Assembly: GCF_004118375.1 (NCBI RefSeq)
Contig: NZ_SDHX01000001.1
Span: 1,095,693 to 1,119,692 of the forward strand
Origin: Oleiharenicola lentus
GTDB lineage: Bacteria > Verrucomicrobiota > Verrucomicrobiia > Opitutales > Opitutaceae
Direction of reading: 5' to 3'
Length of the DNA: 24,000 bases
Shown here: piece after piece, positions 3,462-19,783 of the stretch
Position numbering within the stretch: the first letter of the stretch is position 1
Layout of the letters: the number at the start of each line of letters is the position of its first letter
The notes under the pieces: generated by a model
What the model was told of the DNA's origin: nothing
The model's input: the letters and a program-made list of their open reading frames with translations, nothing else
The model's database searches: none
Made by a program: the position numbers and the translations under genes

Positions 3462-3475
3462 TTGATCCGTATCAA
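3462..3475 (+). promoter_or_regulatory. FNR/Dnr-type box 2 (TTGATCCGTATCAA, then ggc), perfect consensus half-sites
   Basis: Perfect TTGAT-N4-ATCAA. TACTCT lies at 3498-3503 (22-bp spacer). The nirK ATG is at 3528. Confidence 0.75.
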
Positions 3476-3527: not shown

Positions 3528-5027
3528 ATGAAAACATCCCGCGTAATCCCCGCCGCTCTCCTCGCCCTGGTGCTCGCCGCGCCTGCTTTCGCCTCCGAGG
3601 GCCCGACCGATGCCAAGGGCCCGGTCCTGCTGCCGCCCGACGTGCAGGCCCTGCCGGTCGAGCAGGCCATCCTCACCGCGCCACCCCACGTGCCGCCACC
3701 GATCAAGCGCAAGCACGCTGCGCGCGTCGTCGTTAACCTCGAGGTGCGTGAGGTCGTCATGCGCATCGCCGACGGCGCCGAATACACCTTCTGGACCTAC
3801 GGCGGCTCCGTGCCCGGCTCGTTCATCCGCATCCGCGAGGGCGATGTCGTGGAGTTCACGCTCAACAACCACCCGTCCTCGAAGCTCCCGCACAACATCG
3901 ACCTTCACGCCGTCACGGGCCCCGGCGGCGGCGCGGCCTCGACCTTCACCGCGCCGGGCCACGGCTCGAAGTTTACTTTCAAGGCCCTCAACCCCGGCCT
4001 CTACGTCTATCACTGCGCGACAGCGCCCGTGCCCATGCACATCGGCAACGGCATGTATGGCTTGATCCTCGTCGAGCCGAAGGACGGCCTGCCGTCCGTG
4101 GACAAGGAGTTCTACGTCATGCAGGGCGAGTTCTACACTCAGGGCGGCTTCGGCGCCTCCGGCCTGCAGACTTTCGACATGGCGAAGTCCATCGATGAAC
4201 ACCCCACCTATGTCCTCTTCAACGGCTCGGTCGGCGCACTCGTCGGCGACAAGGCCCTGGACACCAAGGTCGGCGACCACGTGCGCGTCTATTTCGGCGT
4301 GGGCGGTCCCAACCTTACCTCCTCGTTCCACGTCATCGGCGAAATTTTCGACAAGGTCTGGACCGAGGGCGGCATGAAATACGCCCAGGAACACGTGCAG
4401 ACGACGATGGTCCCCTCGGGCGGTTCGGCCATCCTTGAGTTCAAGATGGACGTGCCCGGCACCTACGTGCTCGTGGACCACTCGCTCAGCCGCGCGTTCA
4501 ACAAGGGTGCGCTCGGCATGCTCAAGGCCTCCGGTCCCGAGGACCGCGTGATCTACTCCGGCAAGGAGATCGACGCCGTTTATTTCGGTGCCGCCGCCGA
4601 AGAGGGTTCCGCCTCCGCCCGGCGCGAGGCCGAGCTGAAGGCGAAGATCGCGGCCGAGATCAAATCCAACCCCGCCATCGCCAGCCTCACCAAGGAGGTG
4701 CAGCTCGAGCGCGGCAAGCAGGTCTATATGGCCAGCTGCTTCGCCTGCCACCTGCCCGACGGCAAGGGCATGGCCAACGTCTTCCCGCCGCTCGCCGGTT
4801 CCGACTACCTCAAGGCCGACCGCGACCGCGCGATCCGCATCGTGCTCAAGGGCCTCACCGGCCCGGTCACCGTCAACGGCGTGAACTACAACAGCGCCAT
4901 GCCGCCGCAACCGCTCACCGACGAGCAGGTCGCCGACGTGCTCACCTACGTGACGAACAGCTGGGGCAACGAAGGCCCCGCCACCACCGTGGACGACGTC
5001 CGCCGCGTGAAGAACGAGACACACTAA
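3528..5027 (+). CDS. nirK: copper-containing nitrite reductase NirK with fused C-terminal mono-haem cytochrome c domain
   Basis: Signal peptide MKTSRVIPAALLALVLAAPAFA. T1/T2 copper ligands in HNIDLHAV and YVYHCATAPVPMHIGNGMYG (AniA-like class). The C-terminal domain carries CFACH plus a distal SAMPP methionine. The track ORF start (3351) would read through the promoter, so ATG 3528 is preferred. Confidence 0.9.
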   Translation: MKTSRVIPAALLALVLAAPAFASEGPTDAKGPVLLPPDVQALPVEQAILTAPPHVPPPIKRKHAARVVVNLEVREVVMRIADGAEYTFWTYGGSVPGSFIRIREGDVVEFTLNNHPSSKLPHNIDLHAVTGPGGGAASTFTAPGHGSKFTFKALNPGLYVYHCATAPVPMHIGNGMYGLILVEPKDGLPSVDKEFYVMQGEFYTQGGFGASGLQTFDMAKSIDEHPTYVLFNGSVGALVGDKALDTKVGDHVRVYFGVGGPNLTSSFHVIGEIFDKVWTEGGMKYAQEHVQTTMVPSGGSAILEFKMDVPGTYVLVDHSLSRAFNKGALGMLKASGPEDRVIYSGKEIDAVYFGAAAEEGSASARREAELKAKIAAEIKSNPAIASLTKEVQLERGKQVYMASCFACHLPDGKGMANVFPPLAGSDYLKADRDRAIRIVLKGLTGPVTVNGVNYNSAMPPQPLTDEQVADVLTYVTNSWGNEGPATTVDDVRRVKNETH

Positions 5028-5091: not shown

Positions 5092-5958
5092 ATGACTGCC
5101 ACCGTCCGCCGCGTCCGCCCTCCCGTCTGCGGCTCCGCCCTGTGTAACGTAATACGTTACACATGTGCCGGGGTGGCGCTCTTGGTGTTGACGGGCGTGG
5201 CCTTGGGTGGATCGGAAATCGAAAATCCTAATTCAAAAATCGAAAATGCCGCCATGCGGATGGTGCCGTCCGGCACCTATGTGCCCCTCCAACGCTCGAC
5301 CAAGGACCCCGAGCAGGTGCCCGTCGCCGCCTTCCGGCTCGACACCGCGCCCGTCACCAACGCCGACTTCCTCGCCTTCGTCACTGCCAACCCGAAGTGG
5401 CGTCGCTCCGCCGTGAGCCGGCTTTTCGCCGACACCTCCTATCTGGAGCACTGGACCGGCGACCTCGAGCCCGGCTTGCGCGCTCCGCTCGACGCCCCCG
5501 TCGTGCGCGTGTCGTGGTTCGCCGCGCGCGCCTACGCCCGCTGGTCCGGCAAGCGCCTGCCCAGCACCGCCGAGTGGGAACTCGCCGCCGCCGCCGGCTA
5601 CACCACCGCCTTCGGCAAGAACGAACCCGACTTCAACCGCGACCTCTACGCCTGGCTCGCCCGCCCGGTGCCGGAGGTGCTGCCCTCGGTCGCCACCGCC
5701 AAGCCCACGCTCCACGGCGTGCGCGGCCTGCACGGTCTCGTGTGGGAATGGGTGGACGACTTCAACACCGCCATGGTCACCGGTGAATCGCGCGCCGACA
5801 CCGGTCTGGAGCGCGACCTCTTCTGCGGCGCCGGAGCCGCCGGGGCGAAGGAGACGAGCGACTACGCCGCCTTCATGCGCTCCGCCCTTCGTGCCTCCCT
5901 GAAAGCCAACAACACCACCACCTCGCTCGGCTTCCGCTGCGCGGCTTCTCTCCGATGA
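5092..5958 (+). CDS. nirV: FGE-sulfatase/SUMF1-family protein, NirV-like
   Basis: MVPSGTY...RVSWFAARAYARWSGKRLPSTAEWELAA...GLHGLVWEWVDD...LGFRCA are the conserved blocks of the formylglycine-generating-enzyme fold. Position directly after nirK matches the known nirK-nirV arrangement. Confidence 0.7.
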   Translation: MTATVRRVRPPVCGSALCNVIRYTCAGVALLVLTGVALGGSEIENPNSKIENAAMRMVPSGTYVPLQRSTKDPEQVPVAAFRLDTAPVTNADFLAFVTANPKWRRSAVSRLFADTSYLEHWTGDLEPGLRAPLDAPVVRVSWFAARAYARWSGKRLPSTAEWELAAAAGYTTAFGKNEPDFNRDLYAWLARPVPEVLPSVATAKPTLHGVRGLHGLVWEWVDDFNTAMVTGESRADTGLERDLFCGAGAAGAKETSDYAAFMRSALRASLKANNTTTSLGFRCAASLR

Positions 5959-6722
5959 AAACGACGATTCCCCTGATCACCCTCCTCTTCGCGGCCAGCA
6001 TCGCCGCCTCCGACAAACCCGCCGCCTGCTGCCCGGCCGACACCAAGCCGAAGGCCGGCAGCTGCTGCACCGTTGAAAAGGCGGACAAGGCGGCCTGTTG
6101 CGCGGAAAAGCCCTCCGCCCCGGCCGCGTGCTGCGCGGAGAAGGCTCAACCCGCGGCGTGCTGCGCCCAAGCCGACGCACCCAAGCCCGCCGCCTGCTGC
6201 GAAGAGATCAAGGGCTCCGAAACCACCGCCTTCTCCTCCGAATCGCTTTATCAGCTCGAGGCCGGCTTTACCGACGACCGGGGCCGTTCCTTCACCCTCG
6301 GCTCGCTCCGCGGCCGCCCCGTCGTGCTCACCATGTTCTTCGCCTCCTGCAGCTACGCCTGCCCGCTGCTGCTCACCGACATGCAGGCCATCCATGCGAA
6401 GCTGCCGGCCGACATCCGCGACCGGGCTGCGTTCGTGCTCGTGTCCTTCGACGTTGCCCGCGACACGCCGGCCGCGCTCGCGCAATACCGCGCCGACCGC
6501 CACCTCGACGCGCAGTGGACGCTGCTCCACGGCGACGACGACGCGGTGCGCGAGCTCGCCGCGCTGCTCGGCGTGAAGTTCAAGCAGGAGGCCGACGGCC
6601 AGTTCGCCCACTCCAACCTCATCACCATTCTCAACGGCGGGGGCGAGGTCGTCCACCAGCGCACCGGCCTCCGCGGCGGCCTCGACGAAACCGCCCAGGC
6701 CATCGTGGCCGCGTCGCGCTGA
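5955..6722 (+). CDS. Sco1/SenC-family copper chaperone with Cys-Cys repeat N-terminal extension
   Basis: ATGA start/stop overlap with the upstream gene. Signal/anchor sequence present. Sco thioredoxin fold with VVLTMFFASCSYACP (CxxxC) and a downstream His (FAHSNLI). The region before the fold contains six CC dipeptides. Confidence 0.8.
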   Translation: MKTTIPLITLLFAASIAASDKPAACCPADTKPKAGSCCTVEKADKAACCAEKPSAPAACCAEKAQPAACCAQADAPKPAACCEEIKGSETTAFSSESLYQLEAGFTDDRGRSFTLGSLRGRPVVLTMFFASCSYACPLLLTDMQAIHAKLPADIRDRAAFVLVSFDVARDTPAALAQYRADRHLDAQWTLLHGDDDAVRELAALLGVKFKQEADGQFAHSNLITILNGGGEVVHQRTGLRGGLDETAQAIVAASR

Positions 6723-6852: not shown

Positions 6853-7281
6853 ATGACCACGGCTCTGCCGCAGATTCTCGATCAGCGCCGGCCCGAGATT
6901 CGGGCGCGGTGGGAGGCGCTGTTGCGCCTTGAAAAACCTGCCACGGCAATGGCCACGCCGGACATCCTCGTCCACCTCTTCGACCACACCCTCGACGACG
7001 TGCTGGCGCCCAAGCGTCCGGCCGGGAAACCGGTCGCCGCCGAGGGCAAACTGCCTGGCCGGTGTCATTGCAATCCGCTGCGCCCGTATTTCGCCACGCT
7101 TGAGCAGGCCCTGCTCGAAGCGCTCATCTGGGCGCAAGCCGCCGACTCCTCCCTCGACGCCGAGACCCGCGTCGCCCAGGTCGGCGAACTTTGCGAACGC
7201 CTGCGCCGCGTTGCGCACCGGGAGATCCTGCTCCTCGACGGCGTCTGCCAGTGCATCTGTGCGGAGTTGCCGCCGGCTTGA
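6853..7281 (+). CDS. hypothetical 142-aa soluble protein with CHC and CQCIC motifs
   Basis: Normal composition and an ATG start. The N-terminus (ILDQRRPEIRARWEALL) is reminiscent of RsbRD_N-type helical sensor domains. Its TGA stop lies inside box 3. Confidence 0.45.
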   Translation: MTTALPQILDQRRPEIRARWEALLRLEKPATAMATPDILVHLFDHTLDDVLAPKRPAGKPVAAEGKLPGRCHCNPLRPYFATLEQALLEALIWAQAADSSLDAETRVAQVGELCERLRRVAHREILLLDGVCQCICAELPPA

Positions 7282-7291
7282 TTCGCGTCAA
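7278..7291 (+). promoter_or_regulatory. FNR/Dnr-type box 3 (TTGATTCGCGTCAA, then ggc)
   Basis: TAGGGT lies at 7314-7319 (22-bp spacer). The azurin ATG is at 7327. Confidence 0.7.
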
Positions 7292-7326: not shown

Positions 7327-7836
7327 ATGAAAATCCATTCCACCCTGATCCTCCCGTTTCTCGCCGCCGGTGCGCTCCTGCTTTCCGCCTGCGGCAAATC
7401 CGAAGCTCCCGCTGCCGCCGCGTCTGCGGCAGCCCCCGCCCCTGATGGCGTGAAAGCCGTCAGCATCACCGCCGACGACAGCATGAAGTTCAGCGTGACA
7501 GAGATCCGCGCCGTGGCCGGCGAGAAGGTGCGCGTAACGTTCAAGAACGTCGGTCGCATGCCCAAGCAGGCCATGGGGCATAACTGGATTTTGCTCGTGC
7601 CGATGGCCGACAATGAAGTGCTCGCGCTCGCCCAGGCGGCCGCCGCCCGCGCGCCGGAATACCAACCGGCCGATGCCACGAAAGTTCTCGCGCACACCAA
7701 GCTGCTCGGGCCCAACGAGAGCGACACCGTCGAGTTCACCGCACCCGCCACGCCCGGCGACTATCCCTTCGTCTGCACCTTCCCCGGCCACGCGGCCCTG
7801 ATGAAGGGCAAACTCATCGTCGCGCCCAAGTCTTGA
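7327..7836 (+). CDS. azu: lipoprotein azurin (type-1 blue copper protein)
   Basis: Lipobox LLLSAC. Azurin signatures AMGHNWIL and YPFVCTFPGHAALMKG supply the His, Cys, His and Met copper ligands. Confidence 0.85.
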   Translation: MKIHSTLILPFLAAGALLLSACGKSEAPAAAASAAAPAPDGVKAVSITADDSMKFSVTEIRAVAGEKVRVTFKNVGRMPKQAMGHNWILLVPMADNEVLALAQAAAARAPEYQPADATKVLAHTKLLGPNESDTVEFTAPATPGDYPFVCTFPGHAALMKGKLIVAPKS

Positions 7837-7846
7837 TGCGCGTCAA
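7833..7846 (+). promoter_or_regulatory. FNR/Dnr-type box 4 (TTGATGCGCGTCAA, then ggc)
   Basis: Overlaps the azurin TGA stop (7834-7836). TACAAC lies at 7869-7874 (22-bp spacer). ATG is at 7882, with GTG at 7879. Confidence 0.7.
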
Positions 7847-7881
7847 GGCCGCGCGCGGCGCGGCCTGCTACAACCTTCGTG

Positions 7882-9300
7882 ATGTCTGCCCCGGCCGCCG
7901 TTCCCCTCGCGTCCCCGACCTTCGTCCCGTCTCCGGCGGTGGCGGCGGCCGGTGCGCGTTTTCCCGCCGCGGCCCGCGGTTGGTTCGCCTTTGGCGTCGG
8001 CAGCCTCGTGCTTGCGGGTCTGCTCTCGCTCCTGCTCGTCGTCGGCCGCCTGCCGTTCCTAGGCTGGCTGTTCACCGACCCGCTGTTCTTCAAACGCGCC
8101 CTCGTGGTGCATGTCGATCTGGCAATCGTCATCTGGTTTCAGGCCGGCGCCCTCGCGTATCTCGCCTGGGCGGTCGGCTCCCGGGTGCCACGCGGCCTCA
8201 CCGTCGCGTCGGTCGTGCTCGCCGGGCTCGGCATCCTTGGCCTGCTGGCCGGCGCGGTGATGCCGGGGGCACAGCCCATCCTCGCCAACTACGTGCCGGT
8301 CGTGGATCACCCGGTGTTTGTTGCCGGGCTCGTGGCGTGGTTCGCCGGCAGCGGCCTGTATTTTGCCGGCGCGCTCGCGGTGCCGGCGGAGCCGTCGGCG
8401 GCGCTGCCCGATGACGCGCTCGTCGCGCTGCGTGCCTCGGCCGCGGCGCACCTCATCGCGCTGGCGACCTTCGCCGCGGCTTGGCGCACGACGCTGCCGG
8501 GCCTGCCGGCCATCGGCTACTACGAGTTGGTGGCCTGGGGCGGGGGACACGTCATGCAGGTCGGCAACGTCGCCCTGATGCTCGGGCTGTGGTTGCTCCT
8601 GCTCCGCCGCTGGTCCGGCGAGAGCGTGGTCTCGCCCGCCACCATCCGCTGGCTGGCGGTGGCGCTGGTGCTGCCGCAGGCGGTGATGCCCTGGGTGGCC
8701 TGGGGCGGCACGTCGCGGCCGGCTTATTCCGAGATCGCGACGCAGCTGATGCGATGGACGATTTTCCCCGTGGTTCTGATCGTGCTCGGCCTGGGTATCC
8801 GGCACGTCGTGCGGCATGCGGCGAACCGCTCCGCCGGGGGCGGCTGGCGCCTCGTCGGCCTCGCCGGCAGCGCGCTGCTCACCGTGCTGGGCTTCGTGCT
8901 CGGCGCCTTCATCCGCGGCTCCAGCACGCTCGTGCCGGGCCATTACCACTGCGCCATCGGCGCAGTCACTCTCGCGCTGATGACGGCGGCCTACGACTTC
9001 AGCCGCGAGGCCGCGCCGCGCGCCCTCGGCCCGTCGCCGCGGCTCATCCGCTGGCAGCTCGTGCTCTTCGGCGCGGGGCAGGCCGTGTTCGGCCTCGGCT
9101 TTGCACTGGCCGGCGCCTTCGGCCTCGGGCGCAAGCAATACGGCGTCGAGCAGCATGTGCGCTCGCTCGGCGAATACCTCGGCCTCGGCGTGATGGGCCT
9201 CGGCGGTCTCGTGGCGGTGGCCGGCGGCCTCCTCTTTCTCGCCGTCATGCTCCGCGGTCTCGCGGCGTGGCGCACGCGTTCCCTTTCCCCCTCACCATGA
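7882..9300 (+). CDS. divergent 12-TM heme-copper-oxidase subunit-I paralog lacking the helix-VII His-His pair
   Basis: Clear block homology to the subunit I at 10033: ANYVPVVDHPVF vs TSYLPLLAHPAF, WGGGHVMQVGNVALMLGLWLLL vs WGLGHQSQQVNVCAMVAVWYLL, and VPGHYHCAIGAV vs IPGHFHVTVVGG. The helix-II His (VVHVDLAIVIWF) is kept. No HH is present where SAHHLL sits in the paralog. Confidence 0.7.
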   Translation: MSAPAAVPLASPTFVPSPAVAAAGARFPAAARGWFAFGVGSLVLAGLLSLLLVVGRLPFLGWLFTDPLFFKRALVVHVDLAIVIWFQAGALAYLAWAVGSRVPRGLTVASVVLAGLGILGLLAGAVMPGAQPILANYVPVVDHPVFVAGLVAWFAGSGLYFAGALAVPAEPSAALPDDALVALRASAAAHLIALATFAAAWRTTLPGLPAIGYYELVAWGGGHVMQVGNVALMLGLWLLLLRRWSGESVVSPATIRWLAVALVLPQAVMPWVAWGGTSRPAYSEIATQLMRWTIFPVVLIVLGLGIRHVVRHAANRSAGGGWRLVGLAGSALLTVLGFVLGAFIRGSSTLVPGHYHCAIGAVTLALMTAAYDFSREAAPRALGPSPRLIRWQLVLFGAGQAVFGLGFALAGAFGLGRKQYGVEQHVRSLGEYLGLGVMGLGGLVAVAGGLLFLAVMLRGLAAWRTRSLSPSP

Positions 9301-9446
9301 AAAACGAATCCGAAAAACACCCCTGGCAGAAGGTCCTCGACAATCCGTGGCTGCTCCTGGCCCTCGGCGTCCTCGTGCCCTTCCTGTCCTACACCGCGTG
9401 GGGCTGGATCGAGCTCCTGCTCATCAAGCCCGCGCAGCTCCCCTGA
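9297..9446 (+). CDS. 49-aa single-TM membrane peptide (possible small oxidase subunit)
   Basis: ATGA overlap with the upstream stop. Sequence MKNESEKHPWQKVLDNPWLLLALGVLVPFLSYTAWGWIELLLIKPAQLP has one hydrophobic helix. It forms the last 49 codons of track ORF 8481..9446; the rest of that ORF is an Arg/Pro-rich artefact. Confidence 0.5.
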   Translation: MKNESEKHPWQKVLDNPWLLLALGVLVPFLSYTAWGWIELLLIKPAQLP

Positions 9447-9458
9447 ACCGCCGCCGCC

Positions 9459-10010
9459 ATGAGCCTCCGCCCTCTCACCTCCCCCTGGTTCCACGCCCCC
9501 GCCGGCCATGAAAAGCTCTGGCTCGGTGTCGCCATTCTCTGGTGCTTCGTGATGTCGCTGATGATGCCCTACTGGCACTTTCGCGGGAAACAGAACAGCT
9601 CCGGCGAGGCCTACGCCGTCATGCCCGCCGATTTTCTCGCGCGCACCGAGAAATTCGTCGAGGCCAACCGCGTCGGCACCTTCAAGAACCCCACGCCCAA
9701 CGCCTTCGCGGCCGAGCTGCCGCTGGTGGAGCCGCCGGCCGGCGGCGACGCCTACCTCGTGGGCCGCATGTGGCAGTGGTATCCCGCGCTGCGCCTGCGG
9801 CAGGGCGAGACCTACCGCATCCACCTCTCCGCGCTCGACCTGCAGCACGGCTTCTCGCTCCAGCCGCTCAACATGAATTTCCAGGCCGTGCCCGGCTACG
9901 ACCACGTGCTCACGCTCACGCCCACGTCGAAGGGCGAGTTCACCATCGTCTGCAACGAATTCTGCGGCATCGGGCACCACGCGATGACCGGCAAGATCTT
10001 CGTCGAATAA
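9459..10010 (+). CDS. HCO subunit II with complete CuA site (cupredoxin domain, one N-terminal TM helix)
   Basis: CuA ligands are present: DLQHGFSL (His) and CNEFCGIGHHAM (C-x-E-x-C-G-x-x-H-x-x-M). Confidence 0.8.
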   Translation: MSLRPLTSPWFHAPAGHEKLWLGVAILWCFVMSLMMPYWHFRGKQNSSGEAYAVMPADFLARTEKFVEANRVGTFKNPTPNAFAAELPLVEPPAGGDAYLVGRMWQWYPALRLRQGETYRIHLSALDLQHGFSLQPLNMNFQAVPGYDHVLTLTPTSKGEFTIVCNEFCGIGHHAMTGKIFVE

Positions 10011-10032
10011 CCCCGCGACCCTCCCGCCTCCC

Positions 10033-11757
10033 ATGACCTCCGTCTCCGCCACCTTGCCCGTCGGCCCGCACTCGTTGGCCGCGCCCGCCACGCCGAAGCG
10101 CGTCTGCGCCACCACCGGCCTCGGCGTCTGTCTCGACGCCCAGCGTTTCATCAAGCTGCACGCCGTCGTCGGCGTCGTCTTCCTGCTCCTCGGCGGCATC
10201 GCCGCGTTGCTGCTCGCCCTCACGCGCTGGCAGACCGTGCACCTGCTGCCCGCCGACTGGTTCTACCGCGTGCTGACCTTCCACGGCATCAACATGCTGA
10301 TCTTCTGGATCCTGTTCTTCGAGGTCGCCATCCTCTACTTCGCCTGCACCACGCCGCTCAACGCGCGGCTCTTCTCGCGCAAGGTGGCCTGGGTCGGCTT
10401 CGCCCTCATGGGCGTCGGCGCGGTGATGGTGGACTGGGTCATCCTCGCGGGGAAGGCCGACGTCATGATGACGTCCTACCTGCCGCTGCTCGCACACCCC
10501 GCGTTCTACCTCGGCATCATCCTCGTGGCCGTGGGCACGCTGGTCGGCGTGTTCAATTTCTTCGCCACGCTCTACGTCGCCAAGCGGGACCGCGCCTACG
10601 AAGGCTCGATGCCCATCGTGACCTTCGGCGCGCTGGCCGCGGCGATCATCGCGGTGGTCACGCTCCTGCACGGCGCCATCGTCATGATCCCGACCTTTGC
10701 CTACTCGATGGGTTGGATCGGCCAGCCCGACCCGATCTGGTATCGCATCATCTGGTGGGGCCTCGGCCACCAGTCGCAGCAGGTCAACGTCTGCGCCATG
10801 GTCGCGGTCTGGTATCTGCTCTCGCACGTCATTGTCGGCGCGCGCCCGGTCAACGAGGCGGTCTGCCGCACGGCCTTCGCGCTCTACATTTTGTTCATCA
10901 ACATCGCGTCGGCCCACCACCTGCTCGTGGACCCGGCGGTCGGCTCGGCCTGGAAGATCTGGAACACCTCCTACGCGATGTATCTCGCGGTGCTCGCGTC
11001 CATGGTCCACGGCTTCACGGTGCCGGCCGGCGTCGAGATCGCCATGCGCGAGAAGGGTTACACGCGCGGTCTCTTCGGCTGGGTCGTCGCCCTGCCGTGG
11101 CGCAACCCGGCGCTCTCGGGCACCGTGCTCTCGGTGATCATCTTCGGCTTCCTCGGCGGCATCACCGGCGTCACGCTCGGCACGCAGCAGATCAACATCA
11201 TCGCGCACAACACACTGCGCATCCCCGGCCACTTCCACGTCACCGTGGTGGGCGGCACCACCCTGGCGTTCATGGCGCTGGCCTACTACGTGATTCCGCT
11301 GTTCTTTCAGCGCGACTTCATCTGGCGCGGCCTCGCCCGCCTCCAGCCCTGGCTGTTCGGTCTCGGCATCGTCATGCTGTCCTTCGGCATGTCCTTCGCC
11401 GGCTCGATGGGCGTGTCCCGTCGCAGCTGGGACATCGACGCGCAGGGTGTTTACGGTTCGGCGGCCCACCTCTGGCTCGGTGTGCTCGGCCTCGGCGGCG
11501 TGCTGGCCTTTGTCGGCCTGCTGGCTTTCGTACTGCTGTGCGTTGGCACGCTCCTCTTCGGCGAGAAGAACCACGGTCGGCCGATGGCCGACTGGGGCAC
11601 GCCGCCCGCACTCGCCGGGGCGCAGGCCGGTTCGCTGGCCGACAACCACTCGGCGACCAAGGGCACGATCGTGCTGACCCTGGTGTTCCTGGCCTGCTTC
11701 GCGGTTTATTACTTCGCCAACTGGAAGGCGCTGGCCGACGTGTGGCCCGTGCGGTGA
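10033..11757 (+). CDS. HCO superfamily subunit I, B-family-like, lacking the cross-linked Tyr (candidate alternative NO reductase catalytic subunit)
   Basis: The helix-II haem ligand is His84 (TFHGINMLIFW). The helix-VI ligand is His246, with Gln at the +4 position where Tyr sits in O2 reductases (WWGLGHQSQQVN). Helix VII has HH (SAHHLLVDP). Helix X has PGHFHVTVVGG. Confidence 0.8.
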   Translation: MTSVSATLPVGPHSLAAPATPKRVCATTGLGVCLDAQRFIKLHAVVGVVFLLLGGIAALLLALTRWQTVHLLPADWFYRVLTFHGINMLIFWILFFEVAILYFACTTPLNARLFSRKVAWVGFALMGVGAVMVDWVILAGKADVMMTSYLPLLAHPAFYLGIILVAVGTLVGVFNFFATLYVAKRDRAYEGSMPIVTFGALAAAIIAVVTLLHGAIVMIPTFAYSMGWIGQPDPIWYRIIWWGLGHQSQQVNVCAMVAVWYLLSHVIVGARPVNEAVCRTAFALYILFINIASAHHLLVDPAVGSAWKIWNTSYAMYLAVLASMVHGFTVPAGVEIAMREKGYTRGLFGWVVALPWRNPALSGTVLSVIIFGFLGGITGVTLGTQQINIIAHNTLRIPGHFHVTVVGGTTLAFMALAYYVIPLFFQRDFIWRGLARLQPWLFGLGIVMLSFGMSFAGSMGVSRRSWDIDAQGVYGSAAHLWLGVLGLGGVLAFVGLLAFVLLCVGTLLFGEKNHGRPMADWGTPPALAGAQAGSLADNHSATKGTIVLTLVFLACFAVYYFANWKALADVWPVR

Positions 11758-11858: not shown

Positions 11859-12821
11859 ATGCTCATCCCCGCCCACGCCCCTGACGCCCCGCCGGCCGCT
11901 GCCTCCGCCGGCTCCCGCTTCTTCACCGGACCGGGCCTGCTGGTGTTTTTGGGCGCGGCGCTGACCGGCTACGAGGCGTTCCTGCTGCTGACCATCTTCG
12001 GCCCGACCGGAGAGGGTGCGCTGGGCGGCTTCGTGCGGGATTTCCAGCAATGGTGCTACCAGGGCGACCCGCGCACGGGCGGCATGTCGTGGGCCGCCGT
12101 CAGCATCATGTTGCTCGAGCCCGTCATGGTCGTGCTCGTGGCCGGAGTGCTTTGGCGCGATACGGTGGTGCAGCTGCGCTCGCCGGCGCTGTGGCTCCGC
12201 CACCTGCGGGCGGCGGCGGCCGGCCTGGTCGTGGTCGCGGCCGCGGTGGCCGGGCTGGTCGGGTATGCGCAGAGCGATCGTGCCGGCGGGGCTGTGCTCC
12301 CGCCGTTTCCCGGCGAACGCATCCGCGTGCAGCTTGCGGTGCCTGACAAGCCGCTCGTGGACCAGAAGGGCACGCCCTTCCGCCTCGCCGACCTGCGCGG
12401 GCAGGTGGTGCTCGTGACCGGCGTCTATGCCTCATGTTCGACGGCGTGCCCGGAAGTATTCAAGGAGCTGCGCGCCGTGCTGGGCGAACTGCCCGCCGCT
12501 GACCGCGCCGGGTTGCACGTCGTCGCGCTGTCGCTCAACCCCGAATACGAGACTGCCGAGATCATGGACGCCATGGCCGGCGCGCAGGGGCTGGCGTTTC
12601 CCGAGTTCCGTTACGTCAATGGCGAGCGCCCCGACGAGATGCGCGACCTGCTCAAGAGCCTGCAGTTCTCCGTCACGCGCGATCCGGAGACGGGGGTCCT
12701 GAATCACGCGAATCTCTTCCTACTGATTGATCGCGAGGGCCGCATCGCCTTCCGCTTCACGCTCGACCCGCGCCACCGCGCCTGGCTGCGCGAGGGCCTG
12801 CTGCACCTGCTCCGCGAATGA
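11859..12821 (+). CDS. membrane-anchored Sco1/SenC-family protein (multi-TM N-terminal domain plus Sco fold)
   Basis: VVLVTGVYASCSTACP (CxxxC) and a downstream NHANLFLLID His. Three to four N-terminal TM helices. Confidence 0.75.
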   Translation: MLIPAHAPDAPPAAASAGSRFFTGPGLLVFLGAALTGYEAFLLLTIFGPTGEGALGGFVRDFQQWCYQGDPRTGGMSWAAVSIMLLEPVMVVLVAGVLWRDTVVQLRSPALWLRHLRAAAAGLVVVAAAVAGLVGYAQSDRAGGAVLPPFPGERIRVQLAVPDKPLVDQKGTPFRLADLRGQVVLVTGVYASCSTACPEVFKELRAVLGELPAADRAGLHVVALSLNPEYETAEIMDAMAGAQGLAFPEFRYVNGERPDEMRDLLKSLQFSVTRDPETGVLNHANLFLLIDREGRIAFRFTLDPRHRAWLREGLLHLLRE

Positions 12822-14947
12822 GCGCACACCCGCATCCTGAACCGGACTGCGAGGCGCTGGCGGACAATCTGGGCGCTGGTCCTACGCCGGGGGCTGTTCC
12901 GCCTCAGCCGCCGGTCCGCGCCGCGCGGCTGTTTGCCGCGGGCGAAGCGCTTCTCACGCGCCTCGACACGCTGATTGAGCGCGTCTGGCCGCGGGCGCTC
13001 AATCCGCTGGCGCAGCTCGGGCCGGCGACCAACGCCATGCTGCTGCTCGCCACGCTCTCGGGCGTGCTGCTGCTGATCTGGTATTCGGCCAGTGTGCAGT
13101 CGGCGTGGTCGTCGCTGGCGGAACTGGGTCCGCGTTCCGCCGGCGGGATCGTGCGCAGCGTCCACCGCTATTCCTCGGACCTGGCGATGCTGCTCATGCT
13201 GCTGCACGCGCTCCGCACGCTGCTGGCGCGCAAGTTCGCCGATGCGCGCTGGTTGGCCTGGGTGAGCGGCGTGGGGATGCTCGGTCTCGTCTGGTTCATC
13301 GGCTGGACGGGTTACTGGCTGGTGTGGGACGAGCGCGCGCAGCTCGTTGCCACGGGCACGATGAAGGCGGTGGACGTGCTGCCGGTGTTCGGCGAGCCGA
13401 TGCTGCCGCTCTTCAACCATGACCGCACGGTGCCCTCGCTGCTGTTCTTCGTGGTGTTCTTTCTGCACATGGTGCTGCCGCTCGCGATCACCGGTGGGCT
13501 GGCCCTGCATCTGGCGCGCCTGAGCCGGTCGCGCCTGCTGCCCGACCGCCGGCTCACGGCCTGGCTCACCGGGGCGGTGTTCGTTGCGGCCCTGCTCGTG
13601 CCGGCCACCAATGCCGCGTCGGCCCATCTGGCGGTGAAGCCGGCGGCGTTCAGCCTGGACTGGTGGTTTTTGTGGCCGTTGCAACTGACCGCGCGGCTCA
13701 GCGGCCCCGGACTCTGGCTGGCGGCCGGACTGGCCGCCGCCGGACTCTTCACCGTGCCGTGGTGGCTCGCCCGCCGCCGGCTCCGCCCGGCTTTCCAGGC
13801 GACCGTGGATGTTTCTCGCTGCTTTTCATGCACGCTTTGCTCGCACGACTGCCCCTTCGGCGCCATCACGATGGTGCCGCGCACGGACGGGAAACCCTTT
13901 CCCTCGCAGGCGCAGGTGGACCCCGACCGCTGTATCGGCTGCGGCATCTGTGCCGGGGCCTGCGACACCCAGGGCATCGGGCTCGCGTGGTTCGACGCGC
14001 GGCGGGTCGGGCGCGAGCTGGAGGGAATGGTCGCGACGGAACACGCGCGCGGGGCGCGGCCGGCGATCGCCTTTGTCTGTGCGCAGGGTGACGGTGGCTG
14101 GGAACTTTTCGATCATGTGGGCTGGGCGCGGCGGCTGCCCGGCTACACGGTCCGTCCCGTGCCCTGTTCCGGTTGGGTCGAGCCGAAGCTCATCGAACGG
14201 CTCGTGACGAAGGGCGCCGCGGCCGTGCTCATCGTGGGGTGCGGCTCGGCCGAGACCTTCGGCCGCGAGGGCAACCGGTGGATGCCGGCGCGCATCTCCG
14301 GCACGCGCGAGCCTGCGCTCCGGCCCAACCGCGCCGATCCGCTTCGCGTCGCGCACGTGGACTTCGATCCGATCCGCCCGGAACGGCTGGCCATGGTGGC
14401 CGCCGGTCTGCTCCGGGCGGCAGACCCGGCCCCGGCGGTGCACACCGGGCGCACCGCGGGCTGGCTCGCGGGCCTCGGCGTCGCGGTGGCCGGACTGGCC
14501 GGGCTGCTGGCGCTGGCGAACGCGCCATTCCGCAGCCCCGAGCCGCCGGAGCCGGAGTTCATCGTGATGTTCCGCACTTACGGCGACTGGGTCGAAGGCG
14601 TGGCCGCCGACGCGACGCCGGCGGGCGAGGACCAGCGACCGGTGCACATGCGCGCCGCGCAACCGGTGCAGCGCACGCGGCAACCGGTGGTCGTGCGGGT
14701 GACGGTCAACGGCCGCACCGAGGAGCACGTCGTGCGCCCCAAGGGTTTTACTTCCGACGGCATGGCGGTCGGCGAGGTGCGGTGGCGTCTCGCGCCCGGG
14801 GCCCAAACCGCCGAGGTTTACCTGTGGACCCGCGGTGACACCACGGGCGAGCCGGCCCGCCGTTGGCGCGCCGAGTGGACCGCGCAGGCTCGACGCCGAC
14901 ATGTCCTCGCCTACGAGCCCGAAGCCGGTTTTATCTGGGCGCCCTGA
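12818..14947 (+). CDS. fusion protein: di-haem cytochrome b domain + 2x[4Fe-4S] ferredoxin + MvhD/FlpD-like domain + TM helix + C-terminal domain of unknown function
   Basis: ATGA overlap with the upstream gene. Two His pairs are spaced 14 residues apart: SVH116...LLH130 and FLH217...LH231. GWTGYWLVWDERAQ resembles the cytochrome b G-Y-x-L-P-W motif. Two ferredoxin motifs: CFSCTLCSHDCP and CIGCGICAGAC. AFVCAQGDG...PCSGWVEPKLIERLVTKGAAAVLIVGCG resembles hydrogenase delta-subunit-like domains. Confidence 0.65.
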   Translation: MSAHPHPEPDCEALADNLGAGPTPGAVPPQPPVRAARLFAAGEALLTRLDTLIERVWPRALNPLAQLGPATNAMLLLATLSGVLLLIWYSASVQSAWSSLAELGPRSAGGIVRSVHRYSSDLAMLLMLLHALRTLLARKFADARWLAWVSGVGMLGLVWFIGWTGYWLVWDERAQLVATGTMKAVDVLPVFGEPMLPLFNHDRTVPSLLFFVVFFLHMVLPLAITGGLALHLARLSRSRLLPDRRLTAWLTGAVFVAALLVPATNAASAHLAVKPAAFSLDWWFLWPLQLTARLSGPGLWLAAGLAAAGLFTVPWWLARRRLRPAFQATVDVSRCFSCTLCSHDCPFGAITMVPRTDGKPFPSQAQVDPDRCIGCGICAGACDTQGIGLAWFDARRVGRELEGMVATEHARGARPAIAFVCAQGDGGWELFDHVGWARRLPGYTVRPVPCSGWVEPKLIERLVTKGAAAVLIVGCGSAETFGREGNRWMPARISGTREPALRPNRADPLRVAHVDFDPIRPERLAMVAAGLLRAADPAPAVHTGRTAGWLAGLGVAVAGLAGLLALANAPFRSPEPPEPEFIVMFRTYGDWVEGVAADATPAGEDQRPVHMRAAQPVQRTRQPVVVRVTVNGRTEEHVVRPKGFTSDGMAVGEVRWRLAPGAQTAEVYLWTRGDTTGEPARRWRAEWTAQARRRHVLAYEPEAGFIWAP

Positions 14948-15341: not shown

Positions 15342-15818
15342 ATGACCCTGCCCCCGCCTCGCACCCGCATGCTTCTGCTCGTGGCCATCGCCGCCACGCT
15401 GGGACTGTTCGCGGGCCTCGGCGGCTATACGTTTACCTACGCGCACGGGCTGTCGTATTTTTCCAACGACCCCACGGCGTGCGTGAACTGCCACATCATG
15501 CGCGAGCAGTTCGACGGCTGGCTGAAGGGCCCGCACCATGCCGTCGCCACCTGCAACGACTGCCACACGCCGCACAGCTTCATCCCGAAATACCTCAGCA
15601 AGGCCGAAAACGGCTTCTGGCACTCCAAGGGTTTCACGCTCCAGGATTTTCACGAGCCGATCATCATCCGCAAACGGAACATCGCCGTGCTCCAGGAAAA
15701 CTGCGTGTCCTGCCACCAGCAGATCGTGGATGGCATCAACACCCACCCCGGCGACCCGCAGAAGATGCTCGATTGTCTCCATTGTCACCGCGAGGTCGGC
15801 CACGGGCCGATGAAGTGA
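15342..15818 (+). CDS. nrfH: NrfH/NapC-family membrane tetrahaem cytochrome c quinol dehydrogenase
   Basis: N-terminal TM helix. Four CxxCH motifs: CVNCH, CNDCH, CVSCH, CLHCH. Typical size of about 160 aa. Confidence 0.85.
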
Positions 15819-15834
15819 ACTTTCATTCAACCGC

Positions 15835-15965
15835 CACGAATGAACACGAATACACTCGAATCAGAACCAACCCAACGCGCGCGTCATCCTGAGCCGTGCG
15901 AAGGATCCAAGGGGAAGTCGCATCACGCGCCGTCTGCCTGGATCCTTCGCTGCGCTCAGGATGAC
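15835..15965. repeat. composite intergenic repeat element: three tandem 10-mers, then an imperfect 27-bp inverted repeat
   Basis: Tandem 10-mers CACGAATGAA / CACGAATACA / CTCGAATCAG occupy 15835-15864. GTCATCCTGAGCCGTGCGAAGGATCCA (15883-15909) pairs with TGGATCCTTCGCTGCGCTCAGGATGAC (15939-15965). GC content is locally lower than in the flanks. Confidence 0.65.
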
Positions 15966-16038
15966 GGTGCGGGGAGTTTTGCGACGTTCGGGTCGTTCAT
16001 CCGTAGATTTATAACCTAGCTGCCTCGCCCCTCCCGCC

Positions 16039-17505
16039 ATGAAAACCACCCCCGACTCCCGTCAGCACGGCCTCGCCACCTGGGCGCTCATCGCGATCCT
16101 CGCCGCCACGGCCGGCGCCACCTTTCTCACGCTGATGCTCTACCAGAACATCGTCGCCCGGAAGGCCGAGGCCACCAAGGACGTGTTCCGCGTCGTCGAG
16201 GTGAGCGACGAGACCGTGGACCCCGCGATCTGGGGCAAGAACTACCCGCGCCAATACGACAGCTACCGGCGCACCGTGGACACCGAGCGCACGAACCACG
16301 GTGGCAGCGAGGCCTTCCAGCACCTCGACAAGGATCCGGTGTGGCGCCGGCTGTTTGCGGGCTACGCCTTCGCCGTGGATTACCGCGAGGAACGCGGCCA
16401 CGCCTACATGCTCATCGATCAGCGCGAGACGGAGCGAGTGAAGAACTTCAAGCAGCCCGGCGCCTGCCTCCAGTGCCACGCCTCCGCGGTGGACACCTAC
16501 CGCAAGGAGGGCATCAAGGCCGGCATCCCCGCGGGCAAGGAGCATTGGGAAGAGCAGATTCAGAAGGGCTTCGAGGTCGTCTGCGCCATGCCCTACAGCG
16601 AGGCGACCAAACTCGTGGAGCATCCGGTCTCCTGCATCGACTGTCACGACGCCGAGACCATGAACCTGCGCGTCAACCGCCCCGGCTTCCTCAACGGCAT
16701 CCGCGCGCTCGCCAATTCCGACTACCCGACGCCGCACCTGCCCAGCATCGAGCGCTGGCGCAAGGACGGTCGCAAGGGGCGCTATGAGCCCAACTCGGAC
16801 GCCACGCGCCAGGAAATGCGCTCGATGGTCTGCGCGCAGTGCCACGTCGAATATTACTTCAAGGGCGACAAGAAGCTCGTGACCTACCCGTGGGACAAGG
16901 GCCTGAAGGTCGAGCAGATCGAGACCTACTACAACGAGGTCGGGCACACCGACTTCAAGAACAAGGAGAGCGGCGCGCCCATCCTGAAGGCCCAGCACCC
17001 GGAGTTCGAGATGTGGAGCCAGGGCATTCATGCCCGCAGCGGTGTGGCCTGCGCCGACTGCCACATGCCTTATGTCCGCGAGGGCGCCATCAAGGTCAGC
17101 AACCACCATGTCCGCTCCCCGCTGCTCAACGTCGCCCAGGCCTGCCAGTCCTGTCACCGTATCCCCGAGCAGGAAATCAAGGCGCGAGCGCTCCTTGTGC
17201 AGGACCGCAACGCCGCGCTGCTCACGCGCGGCGAGGCGGCGGTGGTCGGCCTGTTGGACGCCATCGCCTTGGCCCAGAAAGCCGGCGCCACCGACGATCA
17301 GCTCAAAACCGCCCGAGACCTGCACCGCAAGGCGCAGTGGCGCCTCGACTTCGTGGCGGCCGAAAACTCGATGGGCTTCCACGCCCCGCAGGAGGCTGCG
17401 CGCATCCTCGCCGAGGCGATCGACTATGCCCGCCAGGGCGAAATCGCCGTTGCGAAGGAGACCAGGCCGGCGGGCGGCGGTGCCGTTGCGGGCGCCCTGA
17501 AGTAA
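16039..17505 (+). CDS. nrfA: pentahaem cytochrome c nitrite reductase NrfA (CxxCH active-site variant)
   Basis: Signal/anchor sequence present. Five haem motifs: CLQCH, CIDCH, CAQCH, CADCH, CQSCH. CAQCHVEYYF is the conserved NrfA Ca-site/active-site block. Confidence 0.9.
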   Translation: MKTTPDSRQHGLATWALIAILAATAGATFLTLMLYQNIVARKAEATKDVFRVVEVSDETVDPAIWGKNYPRQYDSYRRTVDTERTNHGGSEAFQHLDKDPVWRRLFAGYAFAVDYREERGHAYMLIDQRETERVKNFKQPGACLQCHASAVDTYRKEGIKAGIPAGKEHWEEQIQKGFEVVCAMPYSEATKLVEHPVSCIDCHDAETMNLRVNRPGFLNGIRALANSDYPTPHLPSIERWRKDGRKGRYEPNSDATRQEMRSMVCAQCHVEYYFKGDKKLVTYPWDKGLKVEQIETYYNEVGHTDFKNKESGAPILKAQHPEFEMWSQGIHARSGVACADCHMPYVREGAIKVSNHHVRSPLLNVAQACQSCHRIPEQEIKARALLVQDRNAALLTRGEAAVVGLLDAIALAQKAGATDDQLKTARDLHRKAQWRLDFVAAENSMGFHAPQEAARILAEAIDYARQGEIAVAKETRPAGGGAVAGALK

Positions 17506-17590
17506 GTTCGGGTGGCATGGGTCTCCCGACTCATGCTGCCGCGCGCCGAATGGATCGCGGGTCGTGAGATCCGCGGCACATCGCCAAAAC

Positions 17591-18820
17591 ATGAATCGCG
17601 GCACGCCCACAGTAATTCCCGAATTCCCGCCCGACGCCTCGCTGGCCCGGCGCTTCCGCGTCGCGTGGGGGTTCTTGCTCGTCTCCGTCCTGATTGGCCT
17701 CGGCTTGCGGCTCCAGTGGGTGTGGCCGTGGACGACGCTGGAATACAACCACCTGCTTCACGCGCACTCGCACGTCGCCTTCCTCGGGTGGGTGTTCAAC
17801 GCGTTTCTGGTCGTCGCGCTGCGGCATTTCGTGCCGCCGGAGGAGACGCGCGACTACGACCGGATCTGGTGGGCGATGCAGCTCGCCGTGCTGGGCATGC
17901 TGGGCACGTTTCCCTTCCAGGGCTACGCCCCGGCCAGCATCGCTTTTTCCACGCTGCACATGGCCGCGGCGTTCGTGTTCGCGGTGAAGCTCTGGCGCCG
18001 GAACCGCGCGGTCCCGGCGGCGCGGCCGCATCTGCGGCTGGCGCTCGCGTTTATGATCCTGTCCGGCGGCGGGCCGCTCGCCCTCGGCGTGTTGCCGGCG
18101 CTGGGGCTGCGCGAGTCGCCCGCCTACACGCTCGCGATCTATTTCTACCTGCACTGCCAATACAACGGCTGGTTTCCGTTTTTCCTGCAGGCCCTGCTGC
18201 TGCAACGCGCGCAGGAGCGGGGCTGGCGCGTGGATGACACCGCCGCAACCGGCGCCGCGTGGTGGCTCGCCGTCGGCGGGTTACTGACCTTTGCGCTTTC
18301 GACGCTTTGGTGCGGACCGCCGGCCGTGGTCGGCTGGATTGCGGTAGCGGGCGGCGTGATGCAGGCTGTCGGCGCGGTGCGTTTTGTCTGCGCCGTGCGC
18401 GGCGTGCCTTTGCCGGCTGACCGAGTCGTGCGTTTGTTGGCGTTTGTTGCCCTGGGGGCCTGGCTGCTCAAACATGTCCTGCACCTTGCCGGCCCCTGGC
18501 CCGGGCTCGCCGAACTCACCCAGCAGCGCTTCGTGGCCATCGCCTTCCTGCATCTCGTTTTTCTCGGTCTCGTGACGCCCGCTCTGCTTGTCTGGGCGCA
18601 CGGGTGCGGTTGGTTGCCGGCCGGAGCGCGGTTGCGGTTGGGCGCGGGTCTGTTGCTCGCGGGCACGGCGATCACGGAGTCTTTGCTGGTAGTGCCGACC
18701 TTCGTGGGTGGTCTGCCGTTCGGCTGGATGCTGCCGCTGCCCCTGTTGGTCGCCTCCGCCCTTATCGTGGCGGGGGTGGCGGTGCTCCGGCCGCGCGGGT
18801 CCGATTTGCCGGCGGCATGA
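17591..18820 (+). CDS. 12-TM His-rich membrane protein, family uncertain (possibly NnrS-like)
   Basis: About 12 hydrophobic segments. His motifs within helices: LLHAHSHVAFLGW, STLHMAAAF, YFYLHCQYNGWF, AFLHLVFLG. ATG 17591 is preferred over 17564. Its TGA stop lies inside box 6. Confidence 0.35.
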   Translation: MNRGTPTVIPEFPPDASLARRFRVAWGFLLVSVLIGLGLRLQWVWPWTTLEYNHLLHAHSHVAFLGWVFNAFLVVALRHFVPPEETRDYDRIWWAMQLAVLGMLGTFPFQGYAPASIAFSTLHMAAAFVFAVKLWRRNRAVPAARPHLRLALAFMILSGGGPLALGVLPALGLRESPAYTLAIYFYLHCQYNGWFPFFLQALLLQRAQERGWRVDDTAATGAAWWLAVGGLLTFALSTLWCGPPAVVGWIAVAGGVMQAVGAVRFVCAVRGVPLPADRVVRLLAFVALGAWLLKHVLHLAGPWPGLAELTQQRFVAIAFLHLVFLGLVTPALLVWAHGCGWLPAGARLRLGAGLLLAGTAITESLLVVPTFVGGLPFGWMLPLPLLVASALIVAGVAVLRPRGSDLPAA

Positions 18821-18830
18821 CCTGCGTCAA
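18817..18830 (+). promoter_or_regulatory. FNR/Dnr-type box 6 (ATGACCTGCGTCAA, then ggc)
   Basis: TAGGGT lies at 18853-18858 (22-bp spacer). ATG is at 18876. Confidence 0.55.
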
Positions 18831-18875
18831 GGCGCGCGGCGCGGCCTTGGGCTAGGGTGGGGCGTTCGCCATGCC

Positions 18876-19340
18876 ATGAGAACCACCCTCTATTATACCT
18901 TGCTGACGCTCCATATTCTCGGCGCCACGATTTGGACCGGCGGACACGTCGTGCTGGCCACAACGGTGTTGCCGCGGGCGCTGCGCGCAAAACGCGCATC
19001 TATCCTCACCGATTTCGAGCAGGGCTACGAACGCGTCGGCATGCCCGCTTTGGCCGTGCAGATTGTCACCGGTCTGTGGCTGGCGCACCGGCTGCTCGGC
19101 GCGCCGGCGAACTGGTTCAGCGACGCGCCGCTCGCGCACATCGTGCACGTGAAAATCCTCTGCCTCGCGGGCACTGCCGCGCTGGCGATCCATGCCAAGA
19201 CACGCGTCATCCCGCGCCTCAACGACGACAACCTCCCGGTGATGGCCTGGCACATTGCCGGCGTCACGGGGCTCTCCGTGCTCTTTGTGCTGGCCGGCGC
19301 CAGTGCGCGTCTGGGCGGTTTTCCCTTTTTTCAACCCTGA
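18876..19340 (+). CDS. CopD-like 4-TM membrane protein (154 aa)
   Basis: LTLHILGATIWTGGHVVL resembles the CopD-family L-H-x-L-x-A-x-x-W-x-G-G opening helix. Four TM segments. The in-frame ATG at 18876 follows the box/-10 pair. Confidence 0.4.
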   Translation: MRTTLYYTLLTLHILGATIWTGGHVVLATTVLPRALRAKRASILTDFEQGYERVGMPALAVQIVTGLWLAHRLLGAPANWFSDAPLAHIVHVKILCLAGTAALAIHAKTRVIPRLNDDNLPVMAWHIAGVTGLSVLFVLAGASARLGGFPFFQP

Positions 19341-19352
19341 ACCAAAACCGCC

Positions 19353-19706: not shown

Positions 19707-19783
19707 CCAGAGAGACGCAGAGACACAAAGACTGGGTCGATCAGAACTTTGTGACGTCGAGTCTTTGTGGTGAACATCTCCGA

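Follow-up and report, generated by a model that had tools for sequence, protein, structure and literature searches.

The window analysed here is a 24-kb stretch of the genome of Oleiharenicola lentus (Opitutaceae, Verrucomicrobiota), and its positions 9297-11757 very likely encode a three-subunit (IIa-like, II and I) member of the eNOR family, that is a CuA-dependent nitric oxide (NO) reductase of B-type oxygen reductase descent. A preliminary description of the DNA had proposed a CuA-dependent NO reductase built on a B-type heme-copper oxidase (HCO) subunit I that lacks the active site tyrosine. This combination is the published definition of eNOR, and the word proposed is outdated since eNOR activity has been demonstrated for the Rhodothermus marinus enzyme. 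For the O. lentus enzyme we infer NO reductase activity from the sequence. The enzyme family has had its name since 2008, was validated by biochemistry in 2024, and its occurrence in Opitutales was reported in 2026, hence the novelty of the assignment as such is low. The less ordinary results are a 49-amino acid (aa) IIa-like subunit, a CuB-poor paralogue of subunit I and a cytochrome b/Fe-S fusion protein, and the remaining interest lies in these conserved partners.

The catalytic pair is present in the databases. Subunit I is an exact match of RXK55183.1 / WP_129046549.1, carried in RefSeq under the name 'cbb3-type cytochrome c oxidase subunit I', and subunit II of RXK55182.1 / WP_129046548.1. 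Both open reading frames (ORFs), 9459-10010 and 10033-11757, exist as described before and their translations contain all motifs that had been quoted. Conservation was determined in 238 full-length homologues of subunit I, with 60-96% identity to the query, and in 78 orthologues of subunit II. Synteny was determined in the 80 closest genome loci, which all show at least 60% identity and come from at least eight phyla.

Active site of the catalytic subunit

Subunit I (574 aa, 10033-11757, plus strand) is identified by PF00115 with 210 bits. Its six canonical histidines H84, H246, H295, H296, H400 and H402 are located exactly where they had been read and each is present in 238/238 homologues. 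In a HMMER alignment with subunit I of Thermus thermophilus ba3 (E 2e-44), H246 is matched to ba3 H233 and Q250 to ba3 Y237, which is the tyrosine of the His-Tyr cofactor. Residues 241-252 read WWGLGHQSQQVN, by which the helix VI motif is GHQSQQVN and not the canonical B-family GH-P-x-V-Y motif with its cross-link tyrosine. The earlier claim that Gln250 replaces the helix VI tyrosine is thus borne out by the ba3 alignment, as is the claim of flanking Gln and Asn residues near the site: Q249, Q250 and N252 are each conserved in 238/238 homologues. Among solved relatives ba3, a B-type oxidase, is best with ~155 bits and A-type oxidases reach at most 34 bits, which confirms the suggested B-type scaffold.

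The helix 3-4 loop tyrosine Y149 is invariant in the query family, and S323, H326, T329 and Y261, which correspond to a proton path in ba3, are each found in 238/238 homologues. The complete conservation of the His, Gln and Asn residues in subunit I and of the CuA ligands in subunit II (78/78) indicates that the observation is real and reflects strong selection rather than chance. A further residue of subunit I, Glu97 (window positions 10321-10323), is buried in helix II; it is conserved without exception both in the Gln-type clade and in a Tyr-bearing sister clade, whereas B-family oxidases have Ala, Ile or Leu at the position.

CuA subunit and a probable small third subunit

Subunit II (183 aa, 9459-10010, plus strand) has a single N-terminal transmembrane helix, is matched by PF00116 and aligns with the CuA subunit structures of ba3 and Aquifex (PDB 1ehk_B and 7deg_B). 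Its motifs DLQH130GF and C165NEFC169GIGH173HAM176 provide all five side-chain ligands of CuA (H130, C165, C169, H173 and M176). All are invariant in 78/78 orthologues, in agreement with the intact CuA site noted before. E18, invariant to the same extent, aligns with Glu15 of ba3 subunit II at the entrance of the K-channel.

An ORF of 49 aa (9297-9446, plus strand; MKNESEKHPWQKVLDNPWLLLALGVLVPFLSYTAWGWIELLLIKPAQLP) with a single transmembrane helix precedes subunit II. It is below default ORF length and was missed in the preliminary description. Its start codon (ATG) shares bases with the stop codon (TGA) of the preceding gene, which encodes the 473-aa paralogue, and tblastn shows it directly 5' of subunit II in 79/80 closest loci. 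It also occurs in the loci of Defluviimonas, Thermomicrobium roseum and Thermus, where it is annotated as hypothetical. The 49-aa protein is probably the third subunit, a counterpart of ba3 subunit IIa.

Phylogenetic placement and probable assignment to eNOR

A neighbour-joining tree with 100 bootstraps was built. It contains a Gln-type clade (bootstrap 97) that includes the query subclade (99) and the enzymes of Defluviimonas, T. roseum and a Thermus plasmid. These named plasmid relatives show 50% (Defluviimonas), 45% (T. roseum) and 46% (T. thermophilus plasmid) identity and have the motif GH-x-x-Q-Q-[VI]-N in common. The sister sequences keep the tyrosine (GH-x-x-Q-Y-x-N) and group with the Gln-type clade at bootstrap 100, the value at which this combined group is split from the canonical B-family oxidases, including ba3. 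The phylogenetic check named in the preliminary description hence does not put the protein among O2 reductases that bear the tyrosine; it groups with the Gln-type enzymes, and the Tyr-retaining sister is separate.

Among NO reductases that derive from the B family and lack the tyrosine, the residue at its site is diagnostic: Gln in eNOR, Asn in sNOR and bNOR (CuANOR) and Asp in gNOR (PMC8756737 Table A4, after Hemp & Gennis 2008). In addition, the equivalent of ba3 S309 is kept in eNOR and bNOR and lost in sNOR (eNOR paper, Murali et al.), and it is retained here as S323. A conserved tyrosine in the helix 3-4 loop has been listed as eNOR feature (10.1101/592808) and is matched by Y149. The clade-mates point in the same direction. 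Helix X of the Thermus plasmid enzyme reads GHFK, which equals the His/Lys low-spin heme variant that occurs in some eNORs (Murali et al.), and the published eNOR alignment included Thermus and Rhodothermus profundi sequences, all of which retain the key active site residues according to its authors.

The purified eNOR of R. marinus, which contains heme As, reduced NO at 0.68 per second (25 C) and did not reduce O2 (PMC11214002, Murali et al. 2024). Indirect evidence comes from an Opitutales isolate with NirK, eNorAB, identified by Murali's HMMs, and NrfAH, which respires nitrite to nitrous oxide (N2O) (PMC13274419); the same trio is encoded in the O. lentus window.

Alternative explanations

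Several points weigh against the assignment. For the whole subclade at 60% identity or more, NO reduction is deduced in the same way as for the query. The assignment to eNOR is based on the Gln at the tyrosine site, on accessory features and on phylogenetic anchors that are indirect, and not on a direct comparison with the R. marinus protein Rmar_0161; a Rhodothermales homologue had no Rhodothermus sequence among its 120 best relatives. The 24-kb window has no ctaA, ctaB, heme A or heme O synthase gene and related Defluviimonas-type operons do carry cyoE; many but not all eNOR operons carry ctaA/ctaB (eNOR paper), a neighbourhood that has been reported for the Magnetospirillum eNOR. Two of the five positions of the ba3 K-path differ (T312 to His326 and Y244 to Val257). 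Y285, Y314 and Y317 in helices VII and VIII are invariant in the query family. Finally, whether sNOR is an NO reductase or an oxidase is still debated (10.1101/765727), which makes sequence-based calls of NO reductases contestable.

One rival possibility is that the enzyme is a high-affinity O2 reductase of the B/K lineage that either dispenses with the His-Tyr cofactor or, as in cbb3, draws the tyrosine for it from another helix, in which case the nirK context would reflect microoxic respiration. Such an enzyme would fit the nearest solved relatives, which are ba3 oxidases, and the sister group in the tree, which keeps the tyrosine and probably comprises 'K family' O2 reductases; the invariant Y285, Y314 and Y317 could be read as candidates for the migrated residue, and sNOR too has been argued to be an oxidase. 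Y285 and Y314 are kept in all Gln-type reference sequences, and Y317 is replaced by His in the Thermus enzyme. The sequence positions of the three tyrosines would argue against contact with H246. In cbb3 the cross-link tyrosine is found six residues ahead of the His-His pair. Y285 is ten residues ahead of it, by which it should be one helical turn too deep. Models of these families show no migrated tyrosine (Murali et al.), Gln250 is invariant in 238/238 homologues, a RIC/YtfE nitrosative-stress gene belongs to the regulon and the R. marinus eNOR did not reduce O2 with several donors (PMC11214002). We therefore consider an O2 reductase improbable.

A second possibility, which we deem very unlikely, is that the scaffold performs another reaction (NO dismutation, N2O reduction or sensing) or requires the paralogue to show its true activity. 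Other chemistries have been proposed for HCO variants, namely the NO dismutase NOD and a putative N2O reductase, and the subclade always carries extra partners of unassigned role. These two variants are however related to qNOR and cNOR rather than to the B family, no metal ligand of a working binuclear site is missing, and relatives without the paralogue have the same active site.

Hardly credible is an identity as sNOR, the family encoded by norS-norY-senC-orf1 of ammonia oxidisers, which was compared explicitly with eNOR since the order subunit II, subunit I, SenC and a fourth gene recalls Nitrosomonas norSY-senC-orf1, and which we rejected as judged by residues, the tree containing no sNOR sequence: sNOR has Asn at the tyrosine site and has lost the S309 equivalent, here Gln250 and S323 are invariant, and two traits of the clade-mates, the His/Lys variant and an operon with cyoE, are specific to eNOR. 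Plasmid copies from Deinococcus and Geobacillus, both listed as sNOR hosts, turned out to be ordinary Tyr-bearing B-family oxidases.

Proposed mechanism

For the enzyme as an eNOR we infer electron donor, proton path and metal identity, and with these the mechanism below, from ba3 homology and the eNOR paper. Electrons would enter at the periplasmic binuclear CuA (H130, C165, C169, H173 and M176), for which the lipoprotein azurin, the cytochrome c domain of NirK and the cytochrome b/Fe-S protein of the operon are candidate donors. From CuA they would pass to the low-spin bis-His heme (H84/H402) and on to the high-spin heme (H400) with the metal at H246/H295/H296, where two NO would be coupled to N2O. 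Gln250, flanked by the invariant Gln249 and Asn252, would take the place of the His-Tyr radical cofactor; since the conversion of two NO to N2O needs two electrons, a tyrosine radical as donor is dispensable.

Protons would probably be taken from the cytoplasm via a K-channel-like path that consists of E18 of subunit II and T329, Y261, H326 and S323 of subunit I. With residue numbers of the ba3 K-path that we take to be those of Chang et al. 2009, E18 pairs with E15 of ba3 subunit II, T329 with T315, Y261 with Y248 and S323 with S309. Apart from the two differing positions mentioned above, the K-type proton path looks largely intact from these pairings. Uptake from the cytoplasm would make NO reduction electrogenic, and the O. 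lentus path agrees with the proposal that eNOR can draw protons from the cytoplasm and conserve energy (eNOR paper). In the cell, the enzyme would be part of an FNR-type regulon together with nirK, and would either detoxify or respire the NO that NirK forms.

Conserved partners of the enzyme

The module conserved in the 80 closest loci consists of the paralogue, the IIa-like ORF, subunits II and I, a Sco protein and the cytochrome b/Fe-S fusion. Subunit II is present in 78/80 of these loci, Sco is found 3' of subunit I in 71/80, the fusion in 66/80 and the paralogue, with self-hits removed, upstream in 63/80.

The paralogue (473 aa, 12 predicted helices; 7879-9300, plus strand) is a divergent relative of subunit I and 100% identical to O. 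lentus ESB00_04590. BLASTP aligns it with subunit I at 25% identity (E 7e-14), and its AlphaFold2 model (pLDDT 87.7) has ba3 subunit I and cbb3 CcoN as best Foldseek matches with TM-scores of 0.65-0.70. A PDB sequence search, Pfam and NCBIfam gave no match. H78, H355 and H357 are equivalent to the histidines of both hemes and H224 to one of the CuB histidines, and among 163 paralogue homologues these four are invariant wherever the residue is present. The His-His pair of helix VII is absent from this family, by which two of the three CuB histidines are gone, and the K-path residues are not kept either. With the heme histidines kept and the pair lost, the paralogue could bind both hemes and not a normal CuB/FeB. 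The gene is co-transcribed and translationally coupled with the eNOR genes. Genes resembling the paralogue are also present in some eNOR loci of the cyoE type (L118, L123, L143, L145, L149 and L151). gNOR has been described as the first HCO family with even one active site histidine replaced (Murali et al.); a literature search for an HCO family without CuB histidines returned only the Murali papers and no description of such a family.

Downstream of subunit I, a membrane-anchored Sco/SenC-like protein (11859-12821, plus strand; PF02630; exact match of RXK55184.1 / WP_129046550.1) with three transmembrane helices and the motif C193xxxC197 plus H283 is presumed to be the copper chaperone for CuA. 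Its stop codon overlaps the start codon of the cytochrome b/Fe-S fusion (709 aa, 12818-14947, plus strand; exact match of RXK55185.1 / WP_129046551.1), which was delimited by Pfam, NCBIfam, PDB matches and motifs. The N-terminal part of the fusion is a cytochrome b6-like di-heme domain with the H-x13-H pairs H116/H130 and H217/H231, followed by two CxxCxxCxxxC motifs for two [4Fe-4S] clusters, an FlpD/MvhD-like domain, an extra transmembrane helix and, in this subclade, a C-terminal domain of ~140 aa that would be periplasmic. Cytochrome b6 (3e-18) and HdrA (2e-10) are its PDB matches, and the Defluviimonas locus contains a homologue of 526 aa (E 5e-75).

As an independent test, metagenomes were scanned with the fusion as seed (loci L088-L167), and a locus counted as testable if 3.2 kb or more of sequence was present upstream. 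All 43 testable loci have a subunit I homologue upstream on the same strand; 40 of these homologues showed the Gln-type motif in helix VI, and for the other three the motif search stopped short of this helix. This marks the fusion as a partner dedicated to eNOR. Two operon types were found, the Oleiharenicola type and one with the order II, I, cyoE, (Sco), cytochrome b/Fe-S. The latter, with its heme O synthase gene cyoE, echoes the ctaA/ctaB neighbourhood of the Magnetospirillum eNOR.

The fusion would then serve as electron-input module. Going further, it is conceivable, though we regard it as rather doubtful, that the eNOR, instead of working on its own as two subunits supplied by soluble carriers, is the terminal part of a dedicated and undescribed membrane module, in which the fusion feeds CuA from quinol or a cytoplasmic donor and which includes the CuB-poor paralogue with its new active site composition.

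Genomic neighbourhood and regulation

On the plus strand the window encodes, in this order, a YwiC-like protein, a NirK-cytochrome c fusion, a NirV-like protein with FGE domain, a Sco/SenC, a 142-aa orphan and the lipoprotein azurin, followed by the 473-aa membrane protein, the 49-aa ORF, CuA subunit II and HCO subunit I, and then by the second Sco, the 709-aa cytochrome b/Fe-S fusion, NrfH, NrfA, a Crp/FNR regulator, RIC/YtfE and a universal stress protein.

NirK (3528-5027, plus strand) scores 364 bits with TIGR02376 (cut-off 296), has a C-terminal cytochrome c domain (PF00034), probably starts at the ATG at 3528 and is the NO source. Its accessory genes are the NirV-like FGE-sulfatase-domain gene (5092-5958, plus strand, PF03781) and the nirK-linked Sco/SenC (5955-6722, plus strand, PF02630), which are found together with NirK in ~10 of the 80 closest loci. 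The N-terminus of this Sco/SenC has six Cys-Cys dipeptides ~11 residues apart (ACCPAD..SCC..ACC..ACC..ACC..ACC) ahead of a normal CxxxC Sco domain, and may form an extra copper-binding region. The soluble 142-aa orphan (6853-7281, plus strand) has CHC and CQCIC motifs and is near the operon in 9/80 closest loci.

The azurin (7327-7836, plus strand), listed as a lipoprotein azurin in the preliminary description, is upheld as such by its lipobox LLSAC and by solved azurins (E 3e-23), which include the lipid-modified azurin 3ay2. It scores 94.5 bits with TIGR02695, below the cut-off of 105.1. The ORF extends from 7318 and has its first ATG, the start of the azurin, at 7327. It is a plausible electron donor to CuA, and is near the enzyme in only 5/80 closest loci.

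FNR-type boxes were searched with the pattern TTGAT-N4-ATCAA. The window contains eight where 2.15 would be expected, a count that was not attained in any of 100 shuffles. An FNR/Dnr-type box at 7833-7846 (TTGATGCGCGTCAA), 33 bp 5' of the start codon of the paralogue, is likely the promoter element of the operon. In 30/30 Verrucomicrobiota loci a box is present 5' of the operon start, in most of them ~40-70 bp before the estimated start. Further boxes precede ywiC (2591-2604), nirK (3462-3475, perfect), the azurin gene (7278-7291) and RIC/YtfE (21743-21756, perfect). RIC/YtfE (21796-22518, plus strand; TIGR03652 with 223 bits, cut-off 204.7) is a di-iron protein for Fe-S repair and a nitrosative-stress gene. 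The Crp/FNR-family regulator (20530-21273, plus strand), identified by PF00027, PF13545 and the FtrB/FixK/Fnr models, is a candidate reader of the boxes; inspection of its N-terminus by eye gave no Cys cluster. The box-headed genes and the regulator gene form what appears to be a compact regulon, the composition of which fits a response to NO and low oxygen.

Directly 3' of the eNOR operon, nrfH and nrfA (15342-17505, plus strand) encode an ammonifying nitrite reductase. With nirK beside nrfHA the organism encodes both NO-forming and ammonium-forming nitrite reduction, as reported for Verruconatronum. The ORFs 17564-20575, 1671-2594 and 6853-7281 gave no family matches. A sigma-70 promoter scan of the window identified no sites, Rfam and tRNA scans found nothing, and terminator-like matches were near the level of shuffled sequence.

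Significance

eNOR-type enzymes are thought to make a large and mostly unannotated share of environmental N2O. The RefSeq label 'cbb3-type cytochrome c oxidase' is also attached to hundreds of relatives in Verrucomicrobiota, Myxococcota, Leptospiraceae, Bacteroidota and others, and re-annotation would alter what is predicted of the capacity for denitrification in these bacteria, which are common in soil and freshwater. As O. lentus is cultured, it could supply a mesophilic eNOR for biochemistry, which could show if NO reduction conserves energy by virtue of the K-type channel. It could also reveal the roles of the cytochrome b/Fe-S partner and the CuB-poor paralogue. If the dedicated membrane module is real, the paralogue represents an HCO family with an active site composition not described so far.

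Comparison with known systems

The cNOR and qNOR enzymes have a scaffold related to the C family, a Glu ligand of FeB and a cytochrome c or quinol subunit, in contrast to the ba3-like scaffold and CuA partner found here. In gNOR an active site His is replaced by Asp and subunit II lacks the CuA ligands, whereas the O. lentus enzyme has three CuB-site histidines and all CuA ligands. A separate HCO group (P0296, P0307, P0311, P0370 and P0389) was observed with F-H-x-x-H-Y in helix VI, Y-H for H-H in helix VII and Y-x-H for H-x-H in helix X, by which both metal-site and heme ligands are altered.

Closer are sNOR (NorSY of ammonia oxidisers) and bNOR (CuANOR of Bacillus azotoformans), which like the O. 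lentus enzyme are CuA-type, B-family-derived and Tyr-less putative or proven NO reductases. sNOR shares the gene order with senC and differs by Asn at the tyrosine site and loss of the S309 equivalent; bNOR also has Asn at this site and is confined to Bacillales. T. thermophilus ba3 (PDB 1EHK/3S8F) has in common with the O. lentus enzyme the fold, all metal ligands, a CuA subunit II with a single transmembrane helix, a small IIa-like subunit and the K-path positions S309, T315, Y248 and subunit II E15. It differs in Tyr237, here Gln250, in GH-PIVYFW, here GH-QSQQVN, in T312 (His) and Y244 (Val), and in the absence of the invariant buried Glu97.

The eNORs, for which R. marinus Rmar_0161 and the Magnetospirillum 'cytochrome a1-like hemoprotein' are the reference, share with the O. 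lentus enzyme the six histidines, Gln at the tyrosine site, the CuA subunit II, the S309-equivalent Ser, the subunit II Glu of the K-type channel, the helix 3-4 loop Tyr and the association with nirK. The O. lentus operon differs by lacking ctaA/ctaB, and its subclade, delimited at 60% identity or more, adds the upstream subunit-I-like paralogue and has a longer cytochrome b/Fe-S partner of ~700 aa.

The Tyr-retaining sister clade (P0243, P0246, P0247 and P0263; motif GH-x-x-Q-Y-[VI]-N) holds the nearest relatives beyond the Gln-type clade, with 41-43% identity for three members and ~33-35% for P0263. It shares E97, Q249, N252, Y285 and H326 with the O. lentus enzyme, and differs by Tyr at the cross-link site, Val for N290 and aliphatic residues for Y314. 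The clade probably corresponds to the unpublished 'K family' O2 reductases of Hemp and Murali, which have been reported to cluster beside eNOR (Hemp and co-workers, 10.1101/592808). The pair of sister clade and eNOR is a natural Tyr/Gln switch by which the change from oxidase to NO reductase can be studied.

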